Below are positions 41,536 through 63,491 of a stretch of 64,000 nt of DNA, piece by piece. The notes under the pieces were generated by a model that worked only from the letters and a program-made list of their open reading frames with translations, did not search any database and was not told the origin of the DNA. The stretch spans positions 1 through 64,000 of the IMG/VR virus record IMGVR_UViG_3300036770_003093; one strand, 5' to 3'. The position numbers and the translations under genes were made by a program. Every line of letters begins with the position of its first letter. The stretch's first letter is position 1. Source of the stretch: a virus (lineage: Duplodnaviria; Caudoviricetes).

Positions 41536-42206
41536 TACCGTAGAATATTCTGTTTATCATCTTGACCATCACTTGGAATACTGGCGCCGGCAGTAAGTTC
41601 TTTTAAAGCAAACTGCTCTATCTCAGCAAACAAGTAATCTGGTACATTAAAGTTTTGTTCCTGGCGCGGTATACACTGTTCTTCTGAGTCACACTGAAAA
41701 GCTCCAATATTACCTTCAAAGATTGCTTCTACCTTAATGGCTTCCCATGTTTGATTAGGTATATAGATATAATCGTTTATGATCCAGCAATAGACATTCT
41801 TGTTGTACTTAAAAGTACTAGTCTTAGTCATGGATGTGTATGTACCGGGATCAGTAATCGTTACAGATTGAGATCCATCAATAGATGTAATTGATCTAAA
41901 CATGGGACCATAAGTAGCATCTAAGATCTTTGGGAGTTTGTCTTTAGTACGCATGATGGTACAATTTGTTTTGATCCCAGAGCAACATGCTTCTATCTTG
42001 TCAACCTCAATAAGTTCTACACAAGGTAGCACGCTATAGATAGATGACATGCGAATAATCTTACCGCGGTCATCATCTCTCTTTATCAAGAGTTTAGCAT
42101 ATTTCAATATTACTGTATACAACATACGATCAGTAATGAAGCTGTCTTCATTGACAGCTTTCATTATACTCCGTAATCTTGATACAGCATCACCTATAGT
42201 ATTCAT
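41535..42206 (-). CDS. tail ring protein
   Basis: 223 aa with VLPCVELIEVDKIEACC...MRTKDKLP. Size and synteny match crAss-like ring proteins. Confidence 0.55.
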   Translation of the reverse strand: MNTIGDAVSRLRSIMKAVNEDSFITDRMLYTVILKYAKLLIKRDDDRGKIIRMSSIYSVLPCVELIEVDKIEACCSGIKTNCTIMRTKDKLPKILDATYGPMFRSITSIDGSQSVTITDPGTYTSMTKTSTFKYNKNVYCWIINDYIYIPNQTWEAIKVEAIFEGNIGAFQCDSEEQCIPRQEQNFNVPDYLFAEIEQFALKELTAGASIPSDGQDDKQNILR

Positions 42207-42787
42207 ACATCAAATTCATTATAGTTAACCAGAGACTTTTCAATTAAGAACTTGCTCCGGCGTTTTTTAATTTGATCTTCAATTAGTTTAGAGATCTTCT
42301 TTTTACTGTCTACTACAATATATGTCTGCCAATAATCAGGAAAGGTTTTAGCAACAGTTCTTGAAAATAAACGCGCGGGTTTAAATTGCCATAACTCTCT
42401 GTTAGGAAAAGTATAACGGCTAGCATAATTGCTATAGAAGATCTTACCTAAATAACTATCAGATCCAATATTACTATGAATAACCTTTACGCCATATTTA
42501 ATTGATTTACCAAAGTCTATATTTTCTTTTTTAGGTCTTTGACAACTACCAATAAATACGTATCCCATTCTTTGTGGTAACTCTACACCGTCTCTGTTTT
42601 CAATAACTCTTTCAGTAACTTCAATGTTAAACTTCCTGATCACAGTTTTAAATTCTCTTATTGATAGCTTAGGCATATCAGGATTCTTTTCTGCAAATCT
42701 TTTTAAAAAGTCAGCATCAATCAAACTGATTTGTTTTTGAGCGAATCTAGGGAGATTTAAATCAGGCTTTTTAAACGCTTTATTCAT
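42203..42787 (-). CDS. IHF/HU-like DNA-binding protein (crAss-type)
   Basis: Basic 194-aa protein with GVELPQRMGYVFI and WQFKPAR motifs, like the IHF-related gene conserved upstream of crAss tail genes. Confidence 0.55.
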   Translation of the reverse strand: MNKAFKKPDLNLPRFAQKQISLIDADFLKRFAEKNPDMPKLSIREFKTVIRKFNIEVTERVIENRDGVELPQRMGYVFIGSCQRPKKENIDFGKSIKYGVKVIHSNIGSDSYLGKIFYSNYASRYTFPNRELWQFKPARLFSRTVAKTFPDYWQTYIVVDSKKKISKLIEDQIKKRRSKFLIEKSLVNYNEFDV

Positions 42788-42830
42788 AATTATAATATAC
42801 TAATTATATGGCTTCTTTACAAATATATAC

Positions 42831-42862
42831 AAAAAGCAAGCCCCCATTAAAGGGGGCCGCTT
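42831..42862 (-). terminator. intrinsic terminator downstream of the Cys-rich gene block
   Basis: Minus strand AAGCGGCCCCC-tttaat-GGGGGCTTGCTT followed by a T run. Confidence 0.8.
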
Positions 42863-42865
42863 CGT

Positions 42866-42894
42866 TGTCACAGATAAACCAACAAACTGAGACA
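42866..42894 (-). other. 3'-UTR stem-loop, candidate antisense RNA element
   Basis: TGTCTCAG-(TTTGTTGGTTTAT)-CTGTGACA, 7 of 8 stem positions paired. The loop is complementary to the AAACCAACAAA leaders. Confidence 0.45.
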
Positions 42895-42898
42895 TATT

Positions 42899-43789
42899 TT
42901 AGCAAGGATCTCCTACAGTTACTGTACCACCTACAATATACCAAGAGTTATTGCTTGCACATACAGCCAGGGTACCTAATGGAGCAATAGCTGTTGGGCC
43001 AATAAACTCTCCACTGCAATCTACATAGTAAGCATTTGCACCACCACCGCCGGCAGTAAAGGTGATGTTGCGACAATCGTAGCAGCAACCACCAGGTGTA
43101 ATTACAATACCACTTGGTACAGGAATAATGGTTAAGTCATTTACTGAGCAAACAGAAACAGTTTCATTGACATCAATTGATGGGAATGCCTCTGTTGAAC
43201 CATCACAATCTGTAATGTTAAAGGTTGCACAAGGTGTAAGTGTTGCATCAGCAGTAGCAGTTACTCCTGGTACAGGAGGAGGATCAATAACTACACTAGG
43301 TGTACTAGTATAACCAGTTCCTGGCGCTACTAAGTTTACTGCAGCAATAGTATTTCCACCACCTACTACAGCATTAGCAGTAGCACCTAAACCACCTCCA
43401 CCAGTAATTGTTACTGTAGGCGGATTTAATGGATCATAGTTGGTACCAGCATTTGTTACAGTAAATGTCATTACTGTATACTGACACTCGATATCATAAC
43501 CATCACATGTAGGTACAGGGGTGAATGTTACTGAAAAAGGTACACGTTTGTTTAATGATACCTCTGATTCACAAGTTGGTTGTACGTATCCCTCAAAGGT
43601 TACTGCGTCACATGTCTCGTTATCAACAGTAGTAATAATGTTTGCATTACAAGATGCTCCTCCACCGGTACATGTTACAACAGTTGTACAATCATAAGGT
43701 GAAGAAGGACTGGTTCTCCAACATACGCGATGATTTCCTGCGTAGTTAGAATTAAAGGTTACCGTAATTGTTGCTGGTATTGGTGCCAT
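42899..43789 (-). CDS. Cys-rich virion structural protein
   Basis: Contains VTNAGTNY...PTVTITGGGGLGATANA...GTGYTSTPSV, a beta-repeat common in phage structural proteins. Many Cys. Confidence 0.55.
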   Translation of the reverse strand: MAPIPATITVTFNSNYAGNHRVCWRTSPSSPYDCTTVVTCTGGGASCNANIITTVDNETCDAVTFEGYVQPTCESEVSLNKRVPFSVTFTPVPTCDGYDIECQYTVMTFTVTNAGTNYDPLNPPTVTITGGGGLGATANAVVGGGNTIAAVNLVAPGTGYTSTPSVVIDPPPVPGVTATADATLTPCATFNITDCDGSTEAFPSIDVNETVSVCSVNDLTIIPVPSGIVITPGGCCYDCRNITFTAGGGGANAYYVDCSGEFIGPTAIAPLGTLAVCASNNSWYIVGGTVTVGDPC

Positions 43790-45862: not shown

Positions 45863-47560
45863 TTAGCAACTTGAACAACCTATACAACCAGATGTACAGT
45901 CAGATGTACAATTAGATGTACAACCACACTGACTGCTTACGCTAGTACAATTTTGAGGACCTGTTAGTTGCAACATTAGAAGTTTTTCTCTTTCTAGATA
46001 TGTTTCAAGCAGATCATACTCACAACATACAGTTATCCCATATCTCTTGGATAACATGTCTGAATAATATGCTTCAACAAATGCACAGTTTACAAGAATT
46101 TCTTTCTCCTCTGTACATGCTTTAGGAATATATCCAGGTTCAACATAAAACTTGGTTTTCTTTACAGGTTTAGGTAAACATAAATCACAGCGACTAAAGG
46201 ACGCAGTTTTTACAGTTGCTTGAATACAATCGCAACCTTCTTCACTACCTGCAGATACAGTCCAGCATTTTGGAGAACCTTGTATCTGAATTACATTACC
46301 AATTTCATTAGTAAGATCTTCATTAGAATAGATAATATCTGTAGGATCCTCACAGTTTGTTAGAATAAAACATGGTATTCTACAAACATCACAATCAGCA
46401 ATAATCTCATAAATAAAAGGTGATGGTGTAATAATAACCTCATCACAAGAACCATCAATAATTGTGTAGCAACCTTTTATACTCTCAGGTTGAGATATAT
46501 AAATAGTTGTACCAATCATGTTATTTAAATCAACACTAATGCTAATCTGTGAACCATCAGCACATGATTGTAATACGGTACATGTTGATGCTGCTGTATC
46601 TTCACTCCAAACAGCTCGTGGTAGATAATAAACATTATCAGATACTGAAACATTCAGCATTTCATCTGTAGTAGAATACACTGGACCACCACTACCTGCG
46701 CCACTTCCTGTTACATATCCATCAGTGGCAGTATACATATGAGCACCATGATGAAAATCCGCACCTGGTGTAGGACCACTTAAAACTATCCAGTTAGCAC
46801 CAGCATCAATAGTTTGCAGTCTAAGTTCTGAGTTACCGGTTGCCCATAATAAATTATCACTTCTCCATGTTAAGTGTAAAAGATTAGAACGTAGCTCAGG
46901 CGTGTATACAACAGTAAAAAGACCACCAGCATTTGTGCTTCTCCAAATATTATTATTGGTAACAGCAATAATTGTTTGTTGATCTTGGCTGATATGTATA
47001 CCAACAATAGGATCATTAATTGTTCCAATTGATCCTGGTAATGCACCCCAGTTAGAACCAGCATCTAAAGTGTAATATACCTCACCATTTACACCACCAA
47101 CAACGCCTATATTACTAGTGATAAAATGTACTGAATATAGATCAACCGGATTAGATGAATTATCTAATACTTGTCCAACTAAATTAAATGAATTAGCTTG
47201 ATTGTTAGAATAGGCAACTCTTCCTTGATCACCAACAACAACAACGTTGTTAGCATCAATATACCATACTTCACGCCAGGTAAATGCATTAGTCCACACA
47301 CTTTGGTAATTACCAGAAGGTGAAGCCCACAATACACCAGCATTGTTAGAAACAATAATACCTTTACTATTAGAAGGTACAGAACCTGTCATACCAACAG
47401 CAACTACTGAATCAGCAGATCCTGGTTTTGCCATGATATCCAATATGGAATCCATGCGCAAATTGGGAAAAAGATTAGATGTTAAATCAACCCATGGTGT
47501 GGTATGATTATCTAATCTTTTTACAAGACTATTGTCTCCAACTACATATGTTTTAAACAT
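45863..47560 (-). CDS. BNR/Asp-box beta-propeller protein with Cys-rich C-terminus (putative receptor-binding/appendage protein)
   Basis: Repeated S/TxDAGxxW-type boxes (SNNAGVLW, TLDAGSNW, STNAGGLF, TIDAGANW). Confidence 0.7.
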   Translation of the reverse strand: MFKTYVVGDNSLVKRLDNHTTPWVDLTSNLFPNLRMDSILDIMAKPGSADSVVAVGMTGSVPSNSKGIIVSNNAGVLWASPSGNYQSVWTNAFTWREVWYIDANNVVVVGDQGRVAYSNNQANSFNLVGQVLDNSSNPVDLYSVHFITSNIGVVGGVNGEVYYTLDAGSNWGALPGSIGTINDPIVGIHISQDQQTIIAVTNNNIWRSTNAGGLFTVVYTPELRSNLLHLTWRSDNLLWATGNSELRLQTIDAGANWIVLSGPTPGADFHHGAHMYTATDGYVTGSGAGSGGPVYSTTDEMLNVSVSDNVYYLPRAVWSEDTAASTCTVLQSCADGSQISISVDLNNMIGTTIYISQPESIKGCYTIIDGSCDEVIITPSPFIYEIIADCDVCRIPCFILTNCEDPTDIIYSNEDLTNEIGNVIQIQGSPKCWTVSAGSEEGCDCIQATVKTASFSRCDLCLPKPVKKTKFYVEPGYIPKACTEEKEILVNCAFVEAYYSDMLSKRYGITVCCEYDLLETYLEREKLLMLQLTGPQNCTSVSSQCGCTSNCTSDCTSGCIGCSSC

Positions 47561-47762
47561 CGCTTAATCTTACACTTACTTTTTGAATAACAGGTGCATC
47601 AGATTTTGTAGGATTTGGTTGTACAAGTTTGTTTCTGTTTGTAAGAGACAGATCGTACTCATACTTCGCCGCGCAGTTTACACAAACTGAGCGTCCATCA
47701 GTAGCTGTTTTACGTTGACAACCACACCCTAGTTTACTTTTGCAATTTGAACATTGTGCCAT
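47553..47762 (-). CDS. small Cys-rich protein
   Basis: CSNC...GCGC...CVNC in 69 aa, preceded by an AAACCAACAAA leader. Confidence 0.65.
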   Translation of the reverse strand: MAQCSNCKSKLGCGCQRKTATDGRSVCVNCAAKYEYDLSLTNRNKLVQPNPTKSDAPVIQKVSVRLSDV

Positions 47763-47781
47763 ATTTGTTGGTTTTAAATAG

Positions 47782-50028: not shown

Positions 50029-50091
50029 TGTTTTAGATTAAAAGGGTTATAAACATATTATAATATAAGAAAAAGTTTTTCAAATGCAAAA

Positions 50092-50589: not shown

Positions 50590-51287
50590 TAGTTATTTTG
50601 TTCTACGCGTTGTTGTTCTCGCTGGTACTGAGTAAAGATCTCCATATCACCAGCAAGAATTGATGCTGCTTCGTCAATCATGACTTCTACAACATCATCT
50701 TTAAATTCACTTGTTACATCAGTTGTAGATGTGATTCCTGTATAAGGATCTACACAACCGGTAATCTGAATACGCCGAGGTTGGCGGTAATAGATAAAGT
50801 CTCCTTTTGTAACTTCAAACTCTTCGTTGGTATAAACAAAAAGTTTGCCGTCACGCAATGTAGCTACTGTCTCACCCCACTCAAAACTTGGACGTTTGTT
50901 TGTATCCTTTAGAATAATATCTAGGTTACCTTCTTCAACAAGATACACTACCATTCTCTTAGTGGGACAACATTCATTTTTAGCATGTACAGTTATTCTC
51001 TTCCATTGAAAATAATCAGCAGGTATTAGACCAAAACTGTAGTTTTCTTTGTCAGTAAGAATAAGGTTTGCTGAGGTTAAAAGAATTTGAAGGTCATCAA
51101 TGCGTCGATTGCTTTGCTCATCACCTTCTTTAAATTGGTTAAAACCATGAAGTTGACGGCGGCACCATTCGACTTGCGCTTTATTAAAAGCCTCAACAAT
51201 ATGCCAACACTCAAGATTATCATAATCCTGGCTATCAAGTTTGTTAAGCCGTTGTTTAATCTTTAAGGTAATTGTACTATTTAGCAT
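50589..51287 (-). CDS. tail ring / head-tail connector protein
   Basis: LNKLDSQDYDN...FNKAQ...EQSNRRIDDLQIL...YYRQPR motifs, like conserved crAss ring proteins. Confidence 0.6.
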   Translation of the reverse strand: MLNSTITLKIKQRLNKLDSQDYDNLECWHIVEAFNKAQVEWCRRQLHGFNQFKEGDEQSNRRIDDLQILLTSANLILTDKENYSFGLIPADYFQWKRITVHAKNECCPTKRMVVYLVEEGNLDIILKDTNKRPSFEWGETVATLRDGKLFVYTNEEFEVTKGDFIYYRQPRRIQITGCVDPYTGITSTTDVTSEFKDDVVEVMIDEAASILAGDMEIFTQYQREQQRVEQNN

Positions 51288-51293
51288 GTCTTT

Positions 51294-51740
51294 TTACTTT
51301 TTACGTGCATTCTTTTTTGCACCAGCAATTCTATCAGCAGCTGTAGGTTTATTGTATGGGGGAGCTAGAGCAGCAAACTTAGCAGCTTTAGTAGAACCTC
51401 CTACTTTCATTTTAACACCACCTTTTTTTGCTTTATTGGGTATTGTATCCTTTACAAAATATTTTTCAGGATACATCAACATATTTGTATTTCTTCTTAC
51501 ATCAGAAGGATAATTTTTCATATACTCCTGAAAATTTAAACTCTCCTCAAGCTTTCTAGCATCTTCTTTAGCTTTTTGAAAGTCAAAAGCATTAATGTCT
51601 TTATTATCTACTGGACCTGCGGCCTGATATTTTTTTAATGACTTTTTATATGCAGACATAGCACCACCAGCTTTTTTATAAGCCATAGCTTTATTATCAT
51701 TAAAAACTTTAAGTGGATTGGGTTTATTAGTCTTTTTCAT
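51294..51740 (-). CDS. small basic protein with xxGG motifs
   Basis: Lys-rich; KKAGG, KKGG and MKVGG motifs; C-terminal FAALAPPYNKPTAADRIAGA. Confidence 0.7.
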   Translation of the reverse strand: MKKTNKPNPLKVFNDNKAMAYKKAGGAMSAYKKSLKKYQAAGPVDNKDINAFDFQKAKEDARKLEESLNFQEYMKNYPSDVRRNTNMLMYPEKYFVKDTIPNKAKKGGVKMKVGGSTKAAKFAALAPPYNKPTAADRIAGAKKNARKK

Positions 51741-51742
51741 TT

Positions 51743-52006
51743 TTATCCTCTTTTAATATTTTTCCTCATCTTACCAAGAGTCTTAGCAAGTCTAGCTCTT
51801 TGAGCAGTCTTACCGGTACCTTTAGCTTTTTCGTTTAACCATGATTTTTTAATAGTGCCTTCAGGAGTAATTGCACCAGCTGCTTTAGCTGTAGCACGCA
51901 ATGACCCAGGTTTTTTAATAGCACCTTTAATCCAGCTGCCGCCAGATTTCATTTTAGTAAGCTTAGTTGGTGTCATAGAGCCACCACCACACATCATGCA
52001 CTTCAT
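51743..52006 (-). CDS. small basic protein
   Basis: WIKGAIKKPGSLRA...RARLAKTL; Lys-rich. Confidence 0.7.
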   Translation of the reverse strand: MKCMMCGGGSMTPTKLTKMKSGGSWIKGAIKKPGSLRATAKAAGAITPEGTIKKSWLNEKAKGTGKTAQRARLAKTLGKMRKNIKRG

Positions 52007-52008
52007 AA

Positions 52009-52341
52009 TTATTTTTTCTTAGTTTTAATAGCTCCCCCACGTTTTTTGATCGGTGTTATTGTAGATTCAGTAACACTTCTTCTTGAATTTTTGCGAGGAC
52101 TTACAGTTTTTAAATTCATTCTAATAGAATCATCTTTACTAAAAAGATCTATATTATCTGTTCTAGAGTAGCTTTTAGGTTTAGCACTATATTTTTCAAA
52201 TTTTTTTACATACTCCTTCTCTGATATAGGTTTAGATCTTGTAAAAAGATTGCTTTTCGTATAACGCTTACGTGAATCAGAATCTTGCTTTGCTCCACCA
52301 GCTTGTGCTTTTTTTAAAGGTTTTTTAGATACATTTTTCAT
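52009..52341 (-). CDS. small basic protein
   Basis: KKAQAGG near the N-terminus and KKRGG near the C-terminus. Confidence 0.65.
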   Translation of the reverse strand: MKNVSKKPLKKAQAGGAKQDSDSRKRYTKSNLFTRSKPISEKEYVKKFEKYSAKPKSYSRTDNIDLFSKDDSIRMNLKTVSPRKNSRRSVTESTITPIKKRGGAIKTKKK

Positions 52342-52361
52342 GGTTATATAAAATTAAAAGG

Positions 52362-52643
52362 TTAACAATTCCATTTGCGCAAACTTTTATTAATCCTGCT
52401 ATTTGGATCTCTAGCTGTTTTAGCGCTTGTTAGTTTTTTCTTCATGCCCTCCATTCTTGAACAAAAGGATTTACGACGTTTGGCATCTTTGCTACCAGCT
52501 TTAAGCTCAGATGGTTTTTTGGTTACTGCAGTTTGTAACTTACTACCAGGATTTTCCCGGCGATAAGATGCTACACCTTTTTTGTTAAGACCCCCTTTGG
52601 GATCTTTACCCTCTTTACGTTGCCACGCAGCTGTCTTTGCCAT
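52362..52643 (-). CDS. small basic protein (DUF6321-like)
   Basis: GKDPKGGLNKKG...RRKSFCSRM...SRINKSLRKWNC. Confidence 0.7.
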   Translation of the reverse strand: MAKTAAWQRKEGKDPKGGLNKKGVASYRRENPGSKLQTAVTKKPSELKAGSKDAKRRKSFCSRMEGMKKKLTSAKTARDPNSRINKSLRKWNC

Positions 52644-53898: not shown

Positions 53899-54903
53899 TT
53901 AAAGTGTCCAGTTACGCTCAACCTTCTTGGTAAGATCAAGCAGAATATCCTCATGCAACGGATTCTTTAAATACTCTACAACGTCAGCAACATTTCTTCC
54001 TAACAAAGCATTTGTTTCAGTGTGATAGATATAACCATCACCTTTGGTTAAAATGAACTTGTAGAAAGTTGAGTCTTTAACAATTGACCGGATTTTCAAA
54101 GTCTCCATGTCTAACTTAGTTGTATCCAGGAACTGATTAGCCGCGCGGGTTTTATTAGACTCAACACCTTCACCATTAATGAATCTGTCCATGGCGTCAT
54201 AGATAACGTCATTTGGAGTATTCTTTTTATAGATCTGGCTAGCTGCATCTACAACTTTAGCAACATAGAACAACTTACTGCTATTCTTATCATAAAGCTT
54301 TTGCAGTTCAGATAGTGCGCGGTTGCGTAGTTTTTTACCCTCGGTCTTAGTAACCATGGTTTCTTCTACCCTATCAAGATAAAATTTAGGTGGTACCGCG
54401 CGTGCGCGTGCGTCATCTAAACTTTTAGCAACAATAGAAAAACCTCCAGCATTAATAGCATGAAGCTTAATCCTGTCAAATGGATCACTAGGATCTAAGA
54501 ATACAGGATCGTTACCACAGCGCAACGTAATCTTGTTCCAGAAAGTTTTGTTGTTGGGTTGAAGCAGTTCAACCTTGTTCCAAAAATCTTTATCTTCTGG
54601 ATCAATAATGTTAGCTGCAAGCTCACGCTCTAGTTCAGCAACTGATGCGCGAATCTCACGAATATGAGCTTCACGAACTTCAGGGTCTAGTTTTTTGATT
54701 TCAGGAGCAAACTCGTTTAAACCGGTAAGGTAACGAGTAACACCATTCATCTCTACACAAGCTAACTGCTCTTCATGGTAAACACCATCATATAGAGTAA
54801 GCCCGTATTTTTCAAGACCTAGGTTAGAAATGTTGCCATCAAAATATGGCCTTACAGAAACAGGTGTTAGTTTCTTTGGATCTAAAGTTTCGACAATTGT
54901 CAT
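53899..54903 (-). CDS. conserved crAss-like capsid-module protein
   Basis: 334-aa ORF just downstream of the MCP region, in the position of the conserved crAss gene following the MCP. Confidence 0.5.
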   Translation of the reverse strand: MTIVETLDPKKLTPVSVRPYFDGNISNLGLEKYGLTLYDGVYHEEQLACVEMNGVTRYLTGLNEFAPEIKKLDPEVREAHIREIRASVAELERELAANIIDPEDKDFWNKVELLQPNNKTFWNKITLRCGNDPVFLDPSDPFDRIKLHAINAGGFSIVAKSLDDARARAVPPKFYLDRVEETMVTKTEGKKLRNRALSELQKLYDKNSSKLFYVAKVVDAASQIYKKNTPNDVIYDAMDRFINGEGVESNKTRAANQFLDTTKLDMETLKIRSIVKDSTFYKFILTKGDGYIYHTETNALLGRNVADVVEYLKNPLHEDILLDLTKKVERNWTL

Positions 54904-54925
54904 GATTTGTTGGTTTTAAAAAGGG

Positions 54926-55417
54926 TTAGTTAATTACTAAAAAGTGAATAGTCAAAGTGTTATTGAATGCATTTGTATCAATATTATAAATACGGATATC
55001 AAATGATCCAGCAGCAGGAGGACCATCAACAATAACTACAGGAATACCTGCACCAGGATGTTCTACAGTAAGAAGAATTGTACTAGTAGCAGTTACCTCG
55101 CTGTTATTCACAGTAAAGGCGGCATTGCTACCACCGGCTAGGGTACTAGAAACAGTTGTGATGCGACCAGATGCAGCATTAAGAGTAACAGCAGTTGAAA
55201 TAGCAGTTTGCTGAGTAACAGTAGAATTAGTTCCTAGAAAAGAATCATACAAATCAGAAACAAGCACATTTTTAAAGCTAGTAAACTCAATAGCCCATGT
55301 TTTGTAACCATCATCACGAGTAGAATCAGGATTACCAAACAATAGTAAGGCATTATCAGGTACAGTGGTAGAAACGATTTCGTTTGCTACTAAATATGAA
55401 AAATTAATCAGTTCCAT
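54926..55417 (-). CDS. putative capsid decoration/fibre protein
   Basis: VTQQTAISTAVTLNAASGRITT...FTVNNS...GSFDIRI...IHFLVI beta-rich pattern; directly after the MCP terminator. Confidence 0.5.
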   Translation of the reverse strand: MELINFSYLVANEIVSTTVPDNALLLFGNPDSTRDDGYKTWAIEFTSFKNVLVSDLYDSFLGTNSTVTQQTAISTAVTLNAASGRITTVSSTLAGGSNAAFTVNNSEVTATSTILLTVEHPGAGIPVVIVDGPPAAGSFDIRIYNIDTNAFNNTLTIHFLVIN

Positions 55418-55486: not shown

Positions 55487-57103
55487 TTAGAATGAGCCGC
55501 CAGTGATTGGGTTACGCATAACAATCTTCAAAACTTTGGTAGGGTCTTTTACCCAGATTGCAGGCATAGTCTGAGTCATATACACACGGTAACCGTTGAA
55601 TTGACCAGAGCTTGCAAATCCTTGAGAACGTCCCATGTAATCCATGGTACCGTTTTGGTAGAACCACTTCAACTGATTATCCCAAGATAACTTCAACAAG
55701 AAGATGTTGTCATTAGTGTTATCAGTGATATCAAAGATGATGAAGCTGTAAGAAGACAAAGGATAACCATCAATGATTGGGTTTTCAATGTCGTTAGTAA
55801 ATACGTTATCAAACGCAGGGTTCAATACAAACTTCACGTTGGCCAAGAAAGGAATCACATAGCTAGTGTACGCAAATCCAAAGTTCAAGTCCATACCTTT
55901 ACCAGTGATAGCACCGATATCAGCAGCTTGAATCACCAAACCAGAGCTGATAGCTTCTTGTTTGATAGCCTCGTTGACCATACGCATACCACCCATACCA
56001 GTTTGTACAACTAGTGAACGTTGTGGATCTGGACCTTTGAATTCAACTTTACCATTGAAGAAGTTGAAGATCTCAGAGCGGAACAAGTCAAGGTTGAAGT
56101 TGTTCTTGTTGTAAACACGCTTGAAAGAGTTATCAAGCTGCTTCCATAGACCTACAGACAAACGCAAATCATCTGGACCATCTTGTTTGATACGTCCACC
56201 ATGTCCCCACATCAAGTAGGTTTCGATGTCAGTAGCAATTTTGGTCAAGTGAGCAGCTTCCATTGTGGTCAAGAAAGTGCGAGACAAATCTCCATTTTCC
56301 ATAGCACGCTTAACAGCATCTTTACCCATAGTTTTTACCATGTCTTCCAAAGACGTGATAGAAGGATCCATGCGCTTATCAAAGTTACGCCAGATCTCAG
56401 TTACAGGTACAGTACCGTCAGCATTCATACCACCTTTGATCATAAGATCAGCGCGAGAAGAAATGCTATAGTGAACGTGAGCTTCAGCACCACCTACGTA
56501 GTTGTAGAACTCACGGTATCCAGCACCGGTTTGAATATCAGAGAAACGCTCTCCATATTCTCCACGCGCAGAACCTTTACGGAATACACGGGTACCATTA
56601 GCAAGATACTTGTTGTCCAAGAACCGGTAGTTGTCATTGTTCACCAACTGCACAGTGTAGATAAATCCATCACCAATAGGCAGGATATCTTCAGCAGTGA
56701 TGTACAATTCAGCGCCGTTGTATTTGTCATAAGTGATGATATCACCATGACCAAACTCACGCTTGTTAATTTTAATCTTGAAGGTTTGACCATCAATACC
56801 TTTAGTAAGGTTGTTAGGCTCAATATCTTCAATAATGTAAGGAAGCTCAAGGCTTACTGGGGTTTGCCATTTGTACTCACCGCGAGCGTTATCAACCTGG
56901 ATAACATTCTTACCGCCAAAAGAGGACATTTGATAAAGAGGCATTTCTACTTTCTGAGCCATTGCCCAAAGGTCAACGGGGCCCATATCCATAGGTTCTG
57001 CATCTTTCAACATGTTCACTAAGTGGTAAGAATCCACGTGAGAACTGGCAGCATACTTGGTATCTCGGAGGAATATACCATTATTTAAAACTGGAGTTGC
57101 CAT
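55487..57103 (-). CDS. major capsid protein (crAss-like HK97 fold)
   Basis: 538 aa, strongest codon bias in the window, order portal-scaffold-MCP, strong terminator, C-terminal WVKDPTKVLKI motif. Confidence 0.85.
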   Translation of the reverse strand: MATPVLNNGIFLRDTKYAASSHVDSYHLVNMLKDAEPMDMGPVDLWAMAQKVEMPLYQMSSFGGKNVIQVDNARGEYKWQTPVSLELPYIIEDIEPNNLTKGIDGQTFKIKINKREFGHGDIITYDKYNGAELYITAEDILPIGDGFIYTVQLVNNDNYRFLDNKYLANGTRVFRKGSARGEYGERFSDIQTGAGYREFYNYVGGAEAHVHYSISSRADLMIKGGMNADGTVPVTEIWRNFDKRMDPSITSLEDMVKTMGKDAVKRAMENGDLSRTFLTTMEAAHLTKIATDIETYLMWGHGGRIKQDGPDDLRLSVGLWKQLDNSFKRVYNKNNFNLDLFRSEIFNFFNGKVEFKGPDPQRSLVVQTGMGGMRMVNEAIKQEAISSGLVIQAADIGAITGKGMDLNFGFAYTSYVIPFLANVKFVLNPAFDNVFTNDIENPIIDGYPLSSYSFIIFDITDNTNDNIFLLKLSWDNQLKWFYQNGTMDYMGRSQGFASSGQFNGYRVYMTQTMPAIWVKDPTKVLKIVMRNPITGGSF

Positions 57104-57145: not shown

Positions 57146-58402
57146 TTAAAATTTGAAAATGTTTTTGTTAGCGCGTTGTATAGTTTTTCTGGATTTATTA
57201 GTTGCTGTATCACTTTCACGCTCTACTACTGCAGAACCTACTCTACGAGCTTGTTCTGTTTTTAAGGAGCGCACAGTTTGCTCAGTTGCTGCGCGATTAC
57301 CTTGAGATTTAATTTTAGTTTTAAATCCTTCAGGATCTGCTAGCAACCATAGAGCTTCAGCAATTAACTCATGATTAGGTTCAACCCACTGATACTTTTC
57401 TAAAAGGTGCCCCAACAAGTTAGTTGGTTTACCACTAATAGATGGATATCCTGGTTGTACTAATCCAGTATAAAGCATATTTTGAGTCTTACGATCAAGC
57501 TTTACACCACCAAGTTCACCTTTTTCAAGAACACCATATACACTATCTACAAATTGACCTGCGATAGCTTGTTGTTGTTCTTTTTGTTTTTCCTGCTCTG
57601 CAATGCGACGGGCAACTTCTTTTTCTCGAACAGCCTCTAGTTTAGGTTTATACTGACTAGCTTTTTGCTCAAGACGATCCATATCTTTAAATGTTGCAAT
57701 CTCGTCTTCAATCTCGTCTTGTGACATATCACCTTTTAGAGATAAATACTGGCGAACAATTATTTCCTGATCATTAGGATCAGAAGGATCAAGTTCCATT
57801 GCCTCATTAACTTGAGACAGTTGTTGCATCATACCTTTCAAATCTGTTCCACCTTTAGATATATAATCCATAAGGTATTGCATTTCTCCAGGCATAGATT
57901 GAAAAATCTGCTGAGGAATTCTTTGAGAAAGTTCTGCTTCTTTTTCTTTCATGTTAGCTTCAAAAAGCTCACGAAAGTCTTTTGCAGAATACTCATCTAA
58001 AGGCTTGTCGTCATCAAATGGAAAAAGAACACCTTCTTCAATCATTTTTGATGCAAGTTCTACAAGACCACTCTTGTCAACTTTTTTACGACCACGACCA
58101 CTAGAATCCTCTTGTTGAGAGATTAAACTATCAAGTTCATTCAATGCTTCTTCAGCATCTTCAGTGCTTAATGATTCATCATCATTTGAAGTTTCAACCT
58201 TTGCAGCAGGTTTTGCTGGTTGCGGTTTATTGTCAAGGAACGAAGTGTCTACACCTGTAGACGAAAAGATATTAGGTTTTTTCTCATCTTCCTCTTCACC
58301 TTGAACAATGATGTTCTCGGCGCCGGGAAGAGCAAACAGTTCATCAATGTTGACATCTGCTTGTGTAACCTGTGTTACCTCTTCATTTTTATTTTCTGCC
58401 AT
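57146..58402 (-). CDS. acidic scaffold-like protein between portal and MCP
   Basis: Acidic N-terminus, coiled coils, conserved position in the crAss capsid module. Confidence 0.6.
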   Translation of the reverse strand: MAENKNEEVTQVTQADVNIDELFALPGAENIIVQGEEEDEKKPNIFSSTGVDTSFLDNKPQPAKPAAKVETSNDDESLSTEDAEEALNELDSLISQQEDSSGRGRKKVDKSGLVELASKMIEEGVLFPFDDDKPLDEYSAKDFRELFEANMKEKEAELSQRIPQQIFQSMPGEMQYLMDYISKGGTDLKGMMQQLSQVNEAMELDPSDPNDQEIIVRQYLSLKGDMSQDEIEDEIATFKDMDRLEQKASQYKPKLEAVREKEVARRIAEQEKQKEQQQAIAGQFVDSVYGVLEKGELGGVKLDRKTQNMLYTGLVQPGYPSISGKPTNLLGHLLEKYQWVEPNHELIAEALWLLADPEGFKTKIKSQGNRAATEQTVRSLKTEQARRVGSAVVERESDTATNKSRKTIQRANKNIFKF

Positions 58403-58422
58403 TGTTTGTTGGTTTATGTTAT

Positions 58423-58430
58423 TAATATAG
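58423..58430 (-). promoter_or_regulatory. putative late-promoter element TATATTA
   Basis: The same heptamer lies upstream of six starts (2033, 42793, 45840, 50061, 53192, 58423). Confidence 0.5.
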
Positions 58431-58510
58431 ACAAATTTATTATATAAACTTTAAAAAGTTGAAATCGTTAGAGTTGTAATCAGGAAAAATAGTTTATTAT
58501 ATAGCACGCA

Positions 58511-61285
58511 CTATTTTTTCTTCTTATTTGATTCTGCTTCTTTCTCTTTTTTAATGTTCTTTAAATCATACTGATTCTTGTTTTCACGAGCAATTTGTAC
58601 CTGAGCATTTATTTTTTCTCGTTCAACTTGTAACTTTTCTCTTTGAATATTTAGTTTTTCAGCCTCTGTAAGCTTTCTATTAGTTTCTTTTTCTCGTTGA
58701 AGATTAGTTTGCTCTTGGTATTGTTCTGTTTCTCTGATTTCTTTCATGGCATCTTGATAGTCAGATTGCTCATTTTTATTAATATCCATCATAGAACCAT
58801 AGCCGGCAGCTCTAATTTCAGCAACAAGAATATCTTTTTGACGATCTTTCTCTTTTTCTGCAGCCTCATATTGTTGTTTCATCTGCTCTTCTTGTTGTTT
58901 AGCCTGTTGTGCTTGTTGAGCAAGTTGCTGTTCTTGTTGATACTGCTCTTGACGTTGAGCATTAGTTTTCTCCTCAATCTTCTTAAGAACACCAGAAACA
59001 TCTGCCATAGATTCAGCCTCAATGATTTGGCCAAGATCATATATGCTTGCGCCGGCAGTATTGTTTTGAACAGCTAGTTGTTTAATCTGATCTAAGATAG
59101 CTCTATGATTAGCTTTGGTTGTAGCATATACACCAATGTCTCTTAACAACAGATCAGTGCCATTCATCTGGAAGTTAACAATCTCGTCTTTAGAAGAGAT
59201 GTATTGTAAACGAGATGAAGGTTTAGTAGAATAGTAGTATTGTGCAATGTCCGTGCGCATCTGATGCACGCGAGGCATTAGATAGTCACAGTGTTGTATA
59301 AAGTACTGTTCTGTTTGAGCATATGACCCAACAACAGCTTGCTCAATAGCAGTAGCTGTTTGTTGACCAATTTGTTGACCCATACGTTGTGGTGTTACAC
59401 CAACTACTTCAAAAGCTTGCATCTTAAAGTAATTAGCAAGCTGGATCCTAGACATTAGTCTTTCTGTTTGAGAAAGATCTAGTTTTTGGAAGTGATTAAA
59501 GTTTAACGCATTCTCAGTATTAGTTATACTAGTATCTAAAGGTAGCATCTGAAAGTTCTTCATTGCTACATACGCCTTGGCTAGATTATTCCTACCCCAG
59601 TCTTCACCTGCAGAGTGGCGAGGTAAAGTATTTTGATCAAGTAGAATTACTGTACCAAGCTCGTCAACAAGAATATCAGCAATCTGGTTATTAACAATGT
59701 TATAACCAATTTGGAAAGGTTTCATCAAGTCGACGAGCGAAGTTGATCTAGTATTACGATCTGAGAAAACAGAACCCTCAACAGGCAACTTACAACCATA
59801 CAAGGTAGTATCACCTTTCATTTGGTAGCGTAGTCTTCCTGGACGATTCTTTTGTACACCTAGGTAAATAGGATTAATACCGCCGGGGTTATTCATTCCC
59901 CAAAAAGAAGGGTGATTGGGACCAATCTTTACACCACCCCAAACATCATTAATCCAGATCCAATCAATGTGCTCACCAAAAATTAAATTGTCTTTGTTTT
60001 TATTCTTAAACAGAGTAGTGTCATATACAGGCTTATCAGTCACAATATAATCTTCTCCAATAACAGCTGTTTCTACATTTCCTAGTTCATCAATTTTAGT
60101 TAGATGGCCTACGCGTCTTTGTGACTTCCAATATACAGTTGTTACTCTTAGTAAGTGGGCCACGCCAACATCCAAGTAATCCTCGCTCTCAGAAAGAATC
60201 CAGTTTACAATATCACCACCATTATAAATCCAGTTGTCATATACAGATGTAAACTGACGATATGCAAGACTTGGCATACTAGTATTCCACTCATGAGATT
60301 TCGTAGCATCATAGTAGGTGCCATCATTTTGATAACCTTGAATAGGATAACCTGCAGAGCGCACCGGGTAAATAGCTTCTAATGACTTAAGTTCATCCTC
60401 AGTCATCAAATAACCATATTTATCAATGACATCTGAAACAGATAACATATCTGTTTTACCTACCCAGTTACCCTGGGAGATATAACGAATATCCGGCGAC
60501 TTGTGATAGAAAGTTAAAACTGGATTCCAGAGCTCTACATCATAGTCATCTTCCATCATGTGAAAATGCCAAAACTCTCTATCTGTGATCAACATGTCAC
60601 GAAAAGCGCGTTCTTCTAACTCTTCAATTTTGAAACGCTCCATGTCATGCTGCATAAGGTGGGTAGCCCACTGTTCTGCTTGTGACTTATAGTTAGTTCT
60701 AAAGTAATCTTCAATTTCCGGTAAACTCTTTAGCTTTTCAGGTGATAGTTCTTGTTGAGCTTCTTCAGATTCAATATCCATGCCCATTTCGAGCAACTTA
60801 TTTGTAATCTTAATTTGAGCATCAGTTAAAAGATACTCTTCAACCATGGACTTCTTTTGTTCAAGAAGCTCATTATATGAATACTCGTCAATAGCTTTAA
60901 AATTGATTTTAGTGTTTCTTTTAGCAAATTCAGACACAAGAACATTAATTACATTTGGGATAATAGGATAGAACTTAAGTTCTAGTGCACTATAGTCTTC
61001 TTGTGTAAGAGTTTCAACAAGATCTGACATTTCATTGTTTTCACTAACAATATAGTCTGTCTTATCAATGATCCCCTTTGCTAATTTGTAGTTCTTCATA
61101 AGGCGCCGCGCATTACGACGCAGTTGCTTTATACCATTCCACTCTAACCAGTCAACATTCCAGGCTGCCCACTCATCAGTCTTTTCTTTGTCAGGTATAA
61201 ATTGTAAGGGTTGGGTAACACTACCTAACCTATTGTAATCTGCCTTTGCTCCATTCTTGAGCTGTAATGCATTATATATTTGCAT
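58511..61285 (-). CDS. portal protein
   Basis: 924 aa, directly after the terminase. YPIIPNVINVL and SLVDLMKPFQIGYNI motifs and a Gln-rich coiled-coil C-terminus, typical of crAss-like portals. Confidence 0.85.
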   Translation of the reverse strand: MQIYNALQLKNGAKADYNRLGSVTQPLQFIPDKEKTDEWAAWNVDWLEWNGIKQLRRNARRLMKNYKLAKGIIDKTDYIVSENNEMSDLVETLTQEDYSALELKFYPIIPNVINVLVSEFAKRNTKINFKAIDEYSYNELLEQKKSMVEEYLLTDAQIKITNKLLEMGMDIESEEAQQELSPEKLKSLPEIEDYFRTNYKSQAEQWATHLMQHDMERFKIEELEERAFRDMLITDREFWHFHMMEDDYDVELWNPVLTFYHKSPDIRYISQGNWVGKTDMLSVSDVIDKYGYLMTEDELKSLEAIYPVRSAGYPIQGYQNDGTYYDATKSHEWNTSMPSLAYRQFTSVYDNWIYNGGDIVNWILSESEDYLDVGVAHLLRVTTVYWKSQRRVGHLTKIDELGNVETAVIGEDYIVTDKPVYDTTLFKNKNKDNLIFGEHIDWIWINDVWGGVKIGPNHPSFWGMNNPGGINPIYLGVQKNRPGRLRYQMKGDTTLYGCKLPVEGSVFSDRNTRSTSLVDLMKPFQIGYNIVNNQIADILVDELGTVILLDQNTLPRHSAGEDWGRNNLAKAYVAMKNFQMLPLDTSITNTENALNFNHFQKLDLSQTERLMSRIQLANYFKMQAFEVVGVTPQRMGQQIGQQTATAIEQAVVGSYAQTEQYFIQHCDYLMPRVHQMRTDIAQYYYSTKPSSRLQYISSKDEIVNFQMNGTDLLLRDIGVYATTKANHRAILDQIKQLAVQNNTAGASIYDLGQIIEAESMADVSGVLKKIEEKTNAQRQEQYQQEQQLAQQAQQAKQQEEQMKQQYEAAEKEKDRQKDILVAEIRAAGYGSMMDINKNEQSDYQDAMKEIRETEQYQEQTNLQREKETNRKLTEAEKLNIQREKLQVEREKINAQVQIARENKNQYDLKNIKKEKEAESNKKKK

Positions 61286-61286
61286 C

Positions 61287-63491
61287 TTATTTAAAGTTTT
61301 TAAATGGACTCCTCTTCATACCTACTGGCAATACAGATTTGCCCATGTGTCTAAACGGACTATTATTAAATTTACTCAATTTATCTGATTTTTCCAATTT
61401 ACCGTCATCTCTAATTACACGCTTTACATATCCCCGGTTTGTTTGCTGAATTTTAGCAAATGCTACCAGGGCAGAAAAAGCAACTAATCTATCCACGTTA
61501 AGACCATCTTGATAAGCCTGCATTTCGCGCAATAGCATTATATCAGGTATACGTTCAACACCAAATTTTGTACGTACAACTTTACCATCTTCATCTATTT
61601 CCTCATCTAGCTTTTCTTGCAGATACTCAATAGCATAAGATAGAAGATGACTTTTAAATAAGGTGCCGGTATTCTTCCAACCATAATCTGCATATACAGC
61701 TTTGTTAGAAGTAATTTCTTTCAAGAAAAGTATCTGATCTTTTGGTACCAAATACTTTTGCTTACGCTTCATCATCATGTATTGAATAAATAAGCTGACG
61801 TTATTCTCTACAAGAGTCCAAGCATTATAAAATTCAATTATGTTTTCTAGGCGCTCATGAGTTTGCTTAATATCATCAAAACGGCCACACCAGGATGCAA
61901 CAATTTTATCTCCCTCTACATAACTATTTACAGTATCAGCTTCAACCTTTGTAACTTCCGTTGGAGCTTTATACACAAATATCGAGCACAACGAATCTGA
62001 CGTTGTAGTTTTTCCTTCTCCCACAGGGTCAATAGACGCGTAGTACATGCCAAAAGACGGATCCTTAACAGGGCGCTCGTATATAACCACGACACCCTCT
62101 TTATCAACCGCATTTTTAGGGACTGGAAATTCATTAATAGGGAGCTTACGAGTTTCTTTAATAACAACTTTATCATGTTCATCACGAATTAAATTAACAT
62201 ATTCAATAGAAATTTCTTTATCTAAAATACGTCTAATTTGCGCATTAACAAGATGTTGTGGAAACTTTGACTCCTTTCTATAAGCAAAAGCCTCTTCTAT
62301 ATTTCTAGGATGCTGTGATATACGCAATTGATACTTATCTGCCGGCAACTCTTTCTTCCATGTGGCAAACTGTTCTTCTAATGCTACAAGGGCTTCTTCC
62401 ACTTTTGAATTGCCATATTCGTCGATAAAGGGTGGCATTGACCACTGCTCTGGTATGAATAATCCAGATTTTCCATGGGTGCCGTCTTTATCAATAAGAT
62501 TTGATTCCACCGCGTAAATATCATTTACCTCTGGTTTTAGAATCATTTCTTTGAGAGGTTCACATTGATCAAGATCACCTACAGATCCTGCTGCTATAAA
62601 CATACCACTGGTTATAAAACCAGATTTTAGTGCAGGTCTTATATACTCAAAAGTATCATTCATCTTTGGTGCAATACCGGCTTCTTCATGAAAGAAGTAT
62701 TTACATGGACCACCTACACCATTTGTGGGATCTTTCTCAAATGACATACCTTGAATAGTACCTTTAAGACCAACCTCACTTTTTCTATTACCCTTACGCA
62801 CCTCAATCTTCTGTTGCCACATTAATGTCTTACTAGGATTGAATGGTCTATACCATGCAGTATGCTCATTCAAGAAAGCAGCATATTCATCTAGCATTTT
62901 CCAGGTACCTTTCTCATTAATGTAATCTTTAAGACTAGCACCCATTTTTAAGGTAACACCCTCTTCAAACCAAACCTGATTTATAAGCTTTGCAGAATGA
63001 AAGTATGAACTAGCAATCTGACGTTTCTTAAGAATGGCGCTGTGTTTATAATGAAGCTCTGCTAGTAACTCATAAAGGGCCATATGATACTGCGCGTCGC
63101 GAACTTTTGCAAAACCAAACAGGCTCTCTTCCTTATCGTAAATAGGTAAGAAATTAAGCCACATGTAGTAATCACGGCATACATACCATGTCTTATCACC
63201 AGAAATAACTATTATACCATTTCTGTTTTTTACTTTCTGATCATCCCAGTAGTTGACAAAATCTTTGCTTTTAATAGGCGCCTGGCAAAAATAGTTGCGT
63301 TCATTAAATATGGTTGCCTGTTCGTTAAAGATAGCAGTGTCTTCATTAAAACCATACTGACCTGGTTCTTTAAACCGGTCAAGTACAAAAGATTTAAACT
63401 CTTCACGATTACCAAATTCTGTAACTTCCCAGTTTCCATTACGCCAGGTTGGTATACGCTCATAGTATTTTACACCACTCCTACTGATCAT
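61287..63491 (-). CDS. terL: terminase large subunit
   Basis: LKKRQIASSY Walker-A-like motif, FFHEEAG Walker B, YYASIDPV nuclease motif, LVENN, and NVDRLVAF. Confidence 0.92.
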   Translation of the reverse strand: MISRSGVKYYERIPTWRNGNWEVTEFGNREEFKSFVLDRFKEPGQYGFNEDTAIFNEQATIFNERNYFCQAPIKSKDFVNYWDDQKVKNRNGIIVISGDKTWYVCRDYYMWLNFLPIYDKEESLFGFAKVRDAQYHMALYELLAELHYKHSAILKKRQIASSYFHSAKLINQVWFEEGVTLKMGASLKDYINEKGTWKMLDEYAAFLNEHTAWYRPFNPSKTLMWQQKIEVRKGNRKSEVGLKGTIQGMSFEKDPTNGVGGPCKYFFHEEAGIAPKMNDTFEYIRPALKSGFITSGMFIAAGSVGDLDQCEPLKEMILKPEVNDIYAVESNLIDKDGTHGKSGLFIPEQWSMPPFIDEYGNSKVEEALVALEEQFATWKKELPADKYQLRISQHPRNIEEAFAYRKESKFPQHLVNAQIRRILDKEISIEYVNLIRDEHDKVVIKETRKLPINEFPVPKNAVDKEGVVVIYERPVKDPSFGMYYASIDPVGEGKTTTSDSLCSIFVYKAPTEVTKVEADTVNSYVEGDKIVASWCGRFDDIKQTHERLENIIEFYNAWTLVENNVSLFIQYMMMKRKQKYLVPKDQILFLKEITSNKAVYADYGWKNTGTLFKSHLLSYAIEYLQEKLDEEIDEDGKVVRTKFGVERIPDIMLLREMQAYQDGLNVDRLVAFSALVAFAKIQQTNRGYVKRVIRDDGKLEKSDKLSKFNNSPFRHMGKSVLPVGMKRSPFKNFK

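Follow-up and report, generated by a model that had tools for sequence, protein, structure and literature searches.

A conserved hairpin before a late terminator of a crAss-like phage, with a loop complementary to three virion-module leaders, as a probable antisense regulator

The window analyzed in this study comprises the first 64 kb (64,000 nucleotides, nt) of a 118,243-bp crAss-like virus record (IMGVR_UViG_3300036770_003093). Between the stop codon of a gene for a 296-amino-acid (aa) tail-fibre-like protein and the intrinsic terminator of that gene, the minus strand contains a small hairpin, hereafter called the seed hairpin, whose loop is complementary to the sequence just before the start codons of three virion-module genes, encoding proteins of 418, 334, and 69 aa. 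The hairpin is probably a phage antisense regulator: one small structured RNA with a frozen G/U-rich loop, and a matching tag in the ribosome-binding position of three genes. Hundreds of contigs from environmental phages retain the element, and the two protein searches gave 107 and 255 relatives. Should the pairing occur, the element would clearly exemplify a phage that uses RNA to adjust the relative amounts of its assembly proteins.

We consider it quite likely that loop-leader pairing is the function of the element, because the complement lies at the ribosome landing site of these three genes and no others, and because the match has been kept through one or two sequence switches. The fuller reading, in which the conserved stem-loop of the 3' untranslated region (UTR) pairs with the three leaders and lowers their translation initiation, is the one we favour, with less assurance.

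Structure of the seed hairpin and its complement in three leaders

The hairpin begins 4 nt past the stop codon (TAA at 42901-42899, minus strand, followed by AATA and the 5' arm) and forms a stem of 7/8 bp around a 13-nt, G/U-rich loop with the core TTGTTGGTT in DNA letters (Table 1). It is followed, after a spacer of 2-5 nt in the window and in all relatives examined, by the terminator, for which a consensus scan of the minus strand returned a 7-pair stem with six G-C pairs, a 6-nt loop, and a T-rich tail, as in intrinsic terminators. Folding of 42825-42905 (minus strand) with RNAfold gave exactly the hairpin and the terminator, with a minimum free energy of -26.9 kcal/mol (z = -3.85), and none of 200 shuffled sequences was equally stable. 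The element forms the 3' UTR of the 296-aa gene and ends at the intrinsic terminator of that mRNA, which is the location of 3'UTR-derived small RNAs (sRNAs). A promoter-like stretch lies 3' of the terminator, with a sigma-70-like match at 42822-42794 (minus strand) that is a consensus match only, showing, at the level of predicted signals, that the element closes one transcription unit. A cmscan search of 40000-64000 against Rfam 15 (E up to 1) found nothing at the element and one chance snoRNA match elsewhere.

The 14-mer at 42874-42887 (plus strand) is an exact copy of 58404-58417 (minus strand) in the leader of the 418-aa gene. The 11-mer AAACCAACAAA has four copies in the window; three are on the minus strand, before the ATGs at 58402, 54903, and 47762, and one is on the plus strand, in the loop. 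Shuffling gave an expectation of 0.12 copies, and four copies were reached in 0 of 100 shuffles. No further copy was found in the whole 118,243-bp record, and the reversed-pattern control gave zero. The shorter string AACCAAC has 22 copies in this genome, of which only three, namely the leader copies, lie within 20 nt of the start of an open reading frame (ORF). These results bear out the original prediction in its main observations: the minus-strand stem and loop between the 296-aa stop codon and the terminator were recovered both in the sequence and by RNAfold, the perfect 14-nt complement of the 418-aa leader and the core copies before the ATGs at 54903 and 47762 were all found, and the motif is not scattered over random positions, an outcome that the prediction had named as evidence against itself.

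When 202 ORF leaders were ranked by the energy of their duplex with the loop, the three target leaders came 1st, 5th, and 6th. Cofolding of the 70-nt 3' UTR with the leaders gave energy differences (ddG) of -14.9, -12.8, and -10.0 for the 418-, 334-, and 69-aa genes, respectively, compared with -1.7 to -6.2 for 11 of 12 other leaders. In these cofolds, the 5' stem arm pairs additionally with codons 1-2 (GGCA or GACA). We rejected this contact as functional and regard it as a coincidence of this genome, because the arm sequence differs in relatives.

A near copy of the core had also been proposed before the gene for the major capsid protein (MCP). The string is indeed present before the MCP ATG (57103), but it pairs only with a bulge (ddG -5.7, against -10.0 to -14.9 for the three targets), and the MCP leaders of relatives are merely A-rich, without the motif. 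The MCP gene was therefore rejected as a target.

Two further ORFs outside the window carry related sequences. An 84-aa ORF (MENQQE...) at 66989-67243 (minus strand) has a TATATTTG-type promoter and AAACCAACAA at codons 2-5, and relative G001 shows the same arrangement. Pairing here would fall just within the coding sequence, and the ORF is a possible fourth target. A 128-aa plus-strand ORF has a leader (about 90990-91017, plus strand) that contains AGATAAACCTAACAAC, with one mismatch to the motif, and ranks 3rd of 202 by duplex energy.

Table 1. Coordinates of the seed hairpin, its leader complements, and other late-region features in the window
Feature	Position	Strand	Description
Seed hairpin	42866..42894	-	5' arm TGTCTCAG (42894-42887), 13-nt loop TTTGTTGGTTTAT (42886-42874), 3' arm CTGTGACA (42873-42866); sequence, RNAfold
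Intrinsic terminator	42829..42863 (about)	-	G+C-rich stem, 6-nt loop, T-run; directly 3' of the seed hairpin; RNAfold and terminator scan
Leader motif, 418-aa gene (57146-58402)	58404..58417	-	14-nt perfect complement of loop and closing G; ends 1 nt before ATG
Leader motif, 334-aa gene (53899-54903)	54906..54916	-	11-nt complement; ends 2 nt before ATG
Leader motif, 69-aa cysteine-rich gene (47553-47762)	47764..47774	-	11-nt complement; ends 1 nt before ATG; short gap after the 180-aa gene
296-aa tail-fibre-like gene	42899..43789	-	ORF list; partial PHROG matches to tail fibre, baseplate, and virion structural families
Promoter-like stretch (TATATTA-type motif) and short leader of the 194-aa gene (42203-42787)	42788..42828	-	Motif before 194-aa homologues too
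Terminase gene	61287..63491	-	
Portal gene	58511..61285	-	
MCP gene	55487..57103	-	
163-aa gene	54926..55417	-	Between MCP and 334-aa genes

Conservation of the hairpin and of its match to the leaders

Relatives were gathered via neighbouring proteins, never via the motif. A search with the 296-aa protein gave seven loci, and the hairpin followed the homologous gene in six of them, one of these genes being only 38% identical; the seventh locus ends inside the gene. An alignment search with the 223-aa virion protein, a homologue of the protein named ring protein in the record of phage csAssE-Sib, gave 107 relatives, from which 80 loci were kept and 79 were evaluable. By an automatic rule (at most one mismatch to the 9-nt core and at least four bridging pairs), the hairpin was present in 77 of the 79, the misses being a variant loop (L049) and a locus cut by its edge (L115). 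Another protein search returned the hairpin in 26/26 loci (15 by rule and 11 by eye). A second clade comprised 255 relatives. Of its 80 retained loci, 77 satisfied the rule, one match being false, and the three misses had short flanks. In this clade, one extra gene lies between the element and the 194-aa gene. The gene order (180-aa gene, 296-aa gene, element, 194-aa gene, 223-aa gene) is kept in relatives, and terminators of unrelated sequence follow the hairpin in all relatives examined.

In a MAFFT alignment of 56 distinct sequences, 7/7 stem pairs had double changes and 92.1% of the cells were paired. Sliding the partner by 1-3 columns reduced the paired cells to 28-41%, and the observed covariation score was reached in 0 of 500 shuffles. 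The loop core remained invariant or nearly so while the seven stem pairs covaried, as in a conserved single-stranded seed. Stem covariation, which the original prediction had proposed to look for in related phages, was thus found, together with a conserved loop.

The leaders were compared over the 20-kb late module of 29 relatives and the genome of the window. Start codons were located by tblastn and the nearest ATG, leaders were dropped if the tblastn match began after query residue 25, and the longest perfect run was recorded for the 35 nt preceding each start against the loop of the same genome. The median run was 10 nt for leaders of the 418-aa family (27 genomes), 10 nt for the 334-aa family (30 genomes), and 8 nt for the 69-aa family (28 genomes), and it was 3-5 nt for eight other families (portal, MCP, 542-aa, two 180-aa, 565-aa, 498-aa, and 194-aa; 8-30 genomes each). 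A reversed-loop control gave 6 nt on the three target leaders and 3-6 nt on the others. The leader motif has the C/A-rich consensus (A)AACCAAC(A)A and lies about 2-13 nt before the start codon, with its CC about 8-11 nt before the ATG, in the Shine-Dalgarno position. Many relatives have T for the central C in the 69-aa leaders, by which a G.U pair is kept. Complementarity of the seed to translation-start regions, as seen in sRNAs, is kept across relatives, and its co-variation is partial. The proposal that the seed targets leaders of head-assembly genes holds insofar as the motif is kept before the same three families, and fails for the MCP gene, which is not a conserved target.

In many relatives, among them G013 (L129), G012 (L128), G018 (L134), G029 (L145), and G031 (L147), the leaders of the 334-aa homologues contain two or three tandem motif copies, which in these five genomes are spaced 10-15 nt apart. 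Such an arrangement suggests dosage or cooperative binding of the hairpin loop.

The informative position for co-variation is the loop G just 5' of TTGGTT, which faces the leader base just 3' of AACCAA. The counts cover 52 genomes and include all AACCAA copies up to 35-45 nt from a start, with overlapping tandem copies inflating the mismatches. Opposite a loop G (38 genomes), the leader copies had C in 93 cases, T in 25 (G.U), A in 15, and G in one, and opposite a loop A (12 genomes) they had T in 26, A in 23, G in two, and C in none. The single genome with a loop T had A in three copies, and the single genome with a loop C had one T and one A.

Two lineages carry the evidence for matched changes. 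In genome G030, the loop G has become T, and all 3/3 leaders read AACCAAA, one of them being a 14-nt perfect match. The base A occurs in 6/114 copies of the other loop-G genomes of its set, and three such leaders would have a probability of (6/114)^3 = 1.5e-4 if the sites were independent. The loop and leaders of G030 fit each other best in both directions when compared with cross combinations. Since its nearest relatives (66% ring-protein identity) and its tree sister have the canonical loop, the loop state of G030 is derived. The second lineage consists of 14 contigs with a loop A, forming one monophyletic clade on the ring-protein tree, of which 12 were examined for leaders. Fitch parsimony on this tree gave two loop changes in all, the second being a single C-loop contig. 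Within the wider second clade, the leader base C was found in 5/20 copies opposite a loop G and in 0/51 opposite a loop A (Fisher p = 0.0012). Loop-G sister genomes with T in the leader represent the wobble intermediate expected for a path from G-C through G.U to A-U. In addition, the 418-aa leader of G042 matches its own ATAT-variant loop over 13 nt. The joint conservation of loop and leaders that had been suggested as a check is therefore partly present: the two change together in two lineages, and several other loop variants are uncompensated.

Proposed mechanism and rival explanations

In the mechanism that we favour, the hairpin directly before the terminator would mark where late transcripts end on their 3' side, and it may come free as a short fragment of that end. 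The G/U-rich loop of the hairpin would pair with the C/A-rich motif before the start codons of three genes, namely the 418-aa gene (which lies between portal and MCP), the 334-aa gene (which follows MCP), and the 69-aa gene, and the resulting duplex would cover the ribosome landing site. Repression would be the simplest consequence of such a duplex, by analogy with the sRNAs GcvB and SgrS, and the most likely effect would be that translation initiation of the three genes falls once late transcripts accumulate. The hairpin could act in trans or from the 3' end of long late mRNAs. We infer pairing in the cell, the existence of a discrete small RNA, and repression as its effect from the sequences. 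We do not favour a decoy function, offered in the original prediction as an alternative, since a decoy would copy the leader motif and the loop is instead complementary to it.

A bolder version of this mechanism, to which we give only a small chance, treats loop and leader tag as a phage-private translation "address code", in which the tag replaces the ribosome-binding site and the hairpin RNA is the sole reader that switches a regulon of assembly genes. The hairpin might then be an adaptor or activator rather than a simple blocker, and the matched loop and tag switches (G to T in G030 and G to A in the loop-A clade) would be orthogonal codes that prevent cross-regulation between co-infecting relatives. 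Such an RNA specificity system would resemble the C4 immunity of phages P1 and P7, applied to virion assembly.

Two metatranscriptome runs of one study yielded short assembled contigs across the late region, for which DNA carry-over is possible. One of them (42695-42962) bridges the hairpin and the terminator, and another (42554-42830) starts right after the T-run.

Several observations weigh against antisense repression of the three leaders. No TATATTA-type promoter motif was seen just upstream of the hairpin, and so a separate sRNA would need processing. The assembled RNA-library contigs (four RNA or possible-RNA runs) show neither ends, strand, nor level. The 13-nt loop cannot form 11-14 bp unless the stem opens, the loop-leader duplexes are A/U-rich, and the terminase leader also reaches a ddG of -10.0, via contacts outside the loop. 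The co-variation amounts to two compensated events, and its statistics ignore kinship. The enrichment of T in loop-A leaders over sister loop-G leaders (26/51 and 6/20) was not significant (p = 0.12), and the advantage of own over cross-genome duplex energies (-11.17 and -10.82; permutation p = 0.006) is driven by one genome, G030, and is thus no independent proof. In the loop-A clade, only 21/32 leaders have a pairing copy and 23/51 copies have the mismatched A; in the loop-G genomes of the second clade, only 16/22 leaders contain AACCAA. Pairing was found in 1/3 leaders of G033 and compensation in 0/1 visible leader of G047 (loop C), while the extra A in the loop of G046 and the TAG or AAG loops of G006, G008, and G009 are uncompensated, with pairing in the latter three down to a 7-8-nt core.

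Two named phages carry the element. The gap between the tail-fibre gene gp047 and gp046 (the ring-protein homologue) of the cultured Cellulophaga phage phi17:2 contains a 5-bp stem, the loop TTTTTGGTTTTT, and a terminator, and the leader of gp065, the gene after the MCP-position gene, carries AAAACCAAAAA and ranks first among 23 leaders, at -10.0. This U-rich loop has a high background, with values of -8.3 for several unrelated leaders. Alignment found no homologues of the 418- and 334-aa proteins in phi17:2, and the targets in this phage are therefore positional homologues only. In Leptolyngbya phage Lbo-JY46, a 7-bp stem with the loop TTTGTTGGTTG and a terminator lies 1.7 kb upstream of the ring gene. 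None of its 20 AACCAAC copies adjoins a start, and the leader of its 334-aa homologue can form no pairing free of a bulge, which speaks mildly against a universal pairing role; no 418-aa homologue was found by alignment.

The hairpin of Lbo-JY46 (PP438436.1, 91500-91900) lies inside a 410-nt gene-free stretch rich in other hairpins, and this phage has a cyanobacterial host on record, yet carries the crAss-like ring-protein module. The gaps upstream of the ring-protein homologues, the only gaps examined in Flavobacterium phage FpV4, Bacteroides phage DAC17, and phage csAssE-Sib, showed no hairpin of this kind.

A chance resemblance within one genome, which comes to mind for a match found after the fact in an A+T-rich genome, is refuted for practical purposes by the four copies against 0.12 expected, by more than 150 protein-selected loci with stem covariation, and by the target specificity across 30 genomes. 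It is very unlikely that the hairpin is a stability or processing element of the 3' end, or a second terminator hairpin, whose leader match has no function. Double hairpins are common at 3' ends, Lbo-JY46 keeps the hairpin without clear leader copies, and U-rich loops easily match A-rich leaders in A+T-rich genomes; such an element would leave unexplained that the complement stands before the same three families and not before eight others across 30 genomes, that the 11-mer is otherwise absent from the genome, and that G030 and the loop-A clade show joint changes of loop and leaders. We also regard as unlikely a protein-binding site, that is, a double-stranded DNA operator read both ways by a phage regulator, or a loop that is the RNA site of a protein and whose leader complementarity has some other role. 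A specificity shift of one protein would also explain why all copies changed in concert in G030 and in the loop-A clade, the tandem leader copies resemble operator arrays, and A mismatches are frequent at the variable position (15/134 and 23/51 copies). However, the inverted copy is always in the loop of a covarying stem; it is also always on the transcribed strand just before a terminator, a placement that a DNA site would not require, and the leader copies invariably run opposite to the loop. The commonest leader variant, C to T, keeps a G.U pair (25/134 copies), and the loop-A clade adjoins genomes with this variant. An RNA element rather than a DNA site is indicated by stem covariation, by a constant orientation on the transcribed strand, by the place before the terminator, and by variation compatible with wobble pairing, and no RNA-binding protein would recognize a sequence as well as its complement.

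The same pairing could serve another purpose as a long-range contact in late RNAs, and we assign this a low probability. The hairpin would shield leaders of its own or sister transcripts from nucleases by pairing, or its pairing state would tune the adjacent terminator and thereby read-through into the genes for the ring protein and the giant virion proteins. In favour of such a purpose are the constant closeness of hairpin and terminator (2-5 nt in all relatives examined), the position of the three leaders upstream on the same strand, where some transcripts could carry both partners, the extension of the terminator helix by the freed 3' arm in the cofold, and, as a weak hint, the one metatranscriptome contig that bridges hairpin and terminator. 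Against it, other terminators separate the targets from the hairpin (after the MCP gene and before the 180-aa gene, among others), the 194-aa gene has its own promoter-like motif and would not need read-through, and the motif at -2 to -13 points to the ribosome landing site. Antisense control of the three leaders remains the reading that we prefer, and the natural "compensatory mutants" (G030 and the loop-A clade), together with the presence of the element in cultured Cellulophaga baltica phages, make the question directly testable.

Genome context and comparison with known systems

All genes of the late module are on the minus strand, in the order terminase, portal, 418-aa gene, MCP, 163-aa gene, 334-aa gene, small genes, 542-aa gene, 180-aa gene, 69-aa cysteine-rich gene, tail-like genes, 296-aa gene, seed hairpin, 194-aa gene, 223-aa virion protein gene, and genes for giant virion proteins. 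No named phage was similar at the DNA level (blastn). The nearest named phages by protein, with 26-32% identity, are Cellulophaga phages phi17:2 and phi4:1, Flavobacterium phage FpV4, Leptolyngbya phage Lbo-JY46, and gut crAss-like phages. A run search gave 20 runs that contain the stretch, and near-identical DNA was found in 16/16 listed DNA runs, which are freshwater, lake, subsurface, and aquaculture metagenomes.

The proteins of 418, 334, and 69 aa matched no family in PHROGs or Pfam, and a PDB sequence search with the 418- and 334-aa proteins found none. The AlphaFold model of the 334-aa protein (pLDDT 85.5) gave no Foldseek match in the PDB at E <= 0.001, the best rows covering only a RecA-like stretch of about 60 residues. 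The Atlas placed the proteins in unnamed viral clusters and scored the 418-aa protein 0.83 for scaffolding, which is a weak lead only. The labels "scaffold" and "head-assembly" of the original prediction were positional guesses for which no family was found.

The 163-aa gene is present in only 3/30 genomes. Its protein belongs to a PHROG of unknown function and has a sub-threshold match to K1-lyase_C (26.2 bits, cut-off 27), and the gene may be an inserted fragment of a head fibre or a depolymerase tail. Related-strain contigs in two or three runs skip 498 and 346-353 bases at 51260-51759 and 52008-52362, respectively. Since the skipped stretches correspond to small genes of 148 and 110 aa, these are presence/absence cassettes among near-identical phages.

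A second leader motif, TAACCCTT(T)(T)AA(T), stands 15-25 nt upstream of the ATGs at 57103, 54903, 53880, 50028, and 52341 (minus strand). Only the window and the two relatives nearest to it showed this motif, which could act in RNA processing or as part of a promoter. GTTTAT and, after it, TATATTA make up a promoter-like pair that precedes the 418-, 194-, and 542-aa genes (58420-58450, 42795-42815, and 50040-50070, minus strand) and occurs in the same places in relatives L122-L150. The 334- and 69-aa genes lack this pair and lie directly after a terminator or a stop codon, so that longer RNAs must serve for their translation.

Base-pairing RNAs as post-transcriptional regulators are, to our knowledge, almost unexplored in crAss-like phages and phages of Bacteroidota. 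The likely hosts are Bacteroidota, which, as far as we know, lack Hfq and make little use of Shine-Dalgarno pairing. No description of the element was found in full-text literature searches, whose coverage excludes subscription journals, and no family in Rfam 15 corresponds to it. Three kinds of known RNAs nevertheless offer close parallels.

In its layout, the element resembles the 3'UTR-derived base-pairing sRNAs of bacteria, such as CpxQ, SroC, and DapZ. Like these, it lies in the 3' UTR of a protein-coding gene, shares the intrinsic terminator of that gene, and matches translation-start regions of several mRNAs through a short, conserved, single-stranded seed. Unlike these, it belongs to a phage of the lytic, crAss-like type, would be directed at the phage's own virion genes, and carries its seed in a hairpin loop. 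A further 3'UTR-derived sRNA of bacteria is SdhX (PMC6393394).

In its chemistry, the element is comparable to GcvB, which masks CA-rich translational enhancers, and to SgrS, which masks an S1-dependent enhancer (PMC7534054). In these systems, a G/U-rich regulator masks C/A-rich elements just upstream of the start codons of several mRNAs, as proposed for the seed hairpin. Control of many targets by one seed, as in GcvB, would account for a frozen seed. The likeness does not extend to homologous sequence or structure, and neither the GcvB family nor any other Rfam family had a match at the element in the cmscan search of 40000-64000 (E up to 1). In contrast to the GcvB targets, the C/A motif here replaces the ribosome-binding site, and the regulator is a loop in a 3' UTR, whereas GcvB is a free-standing gene.

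The loops of the C4 RNA pair with their targets with a specificity that can be switched by matched loop and target changes, as in the heteroimmunity of phages P1 and P7, and the matched changes of G030 and the loop-A clade are of the same kind. C4 is a phage-encoded structured antisense RNA (PMC8198154). C4 and the seed hairpin are both structured phage RNAs from the same strand as their targets, with loops that pair, or in our case would pair, at the ribosome-binding region. They differ in that C4 lies upstream of its target (icd/ant) in the immunity operon of a temperate phage and controls an antirepressor, while the element described here closes a late structural operon and matches three dispersed leaders. 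It is also no member of the C4 family, the Rfam model of which gave no match in the search of the same region at the same threshold. Taken together, by analogy, the element would combine the layout of 3'UTR-derived sRNAs, the G/U against C/A chemistry of GcvB, and the switchable specificity of a C4-type phage antisense RNA.

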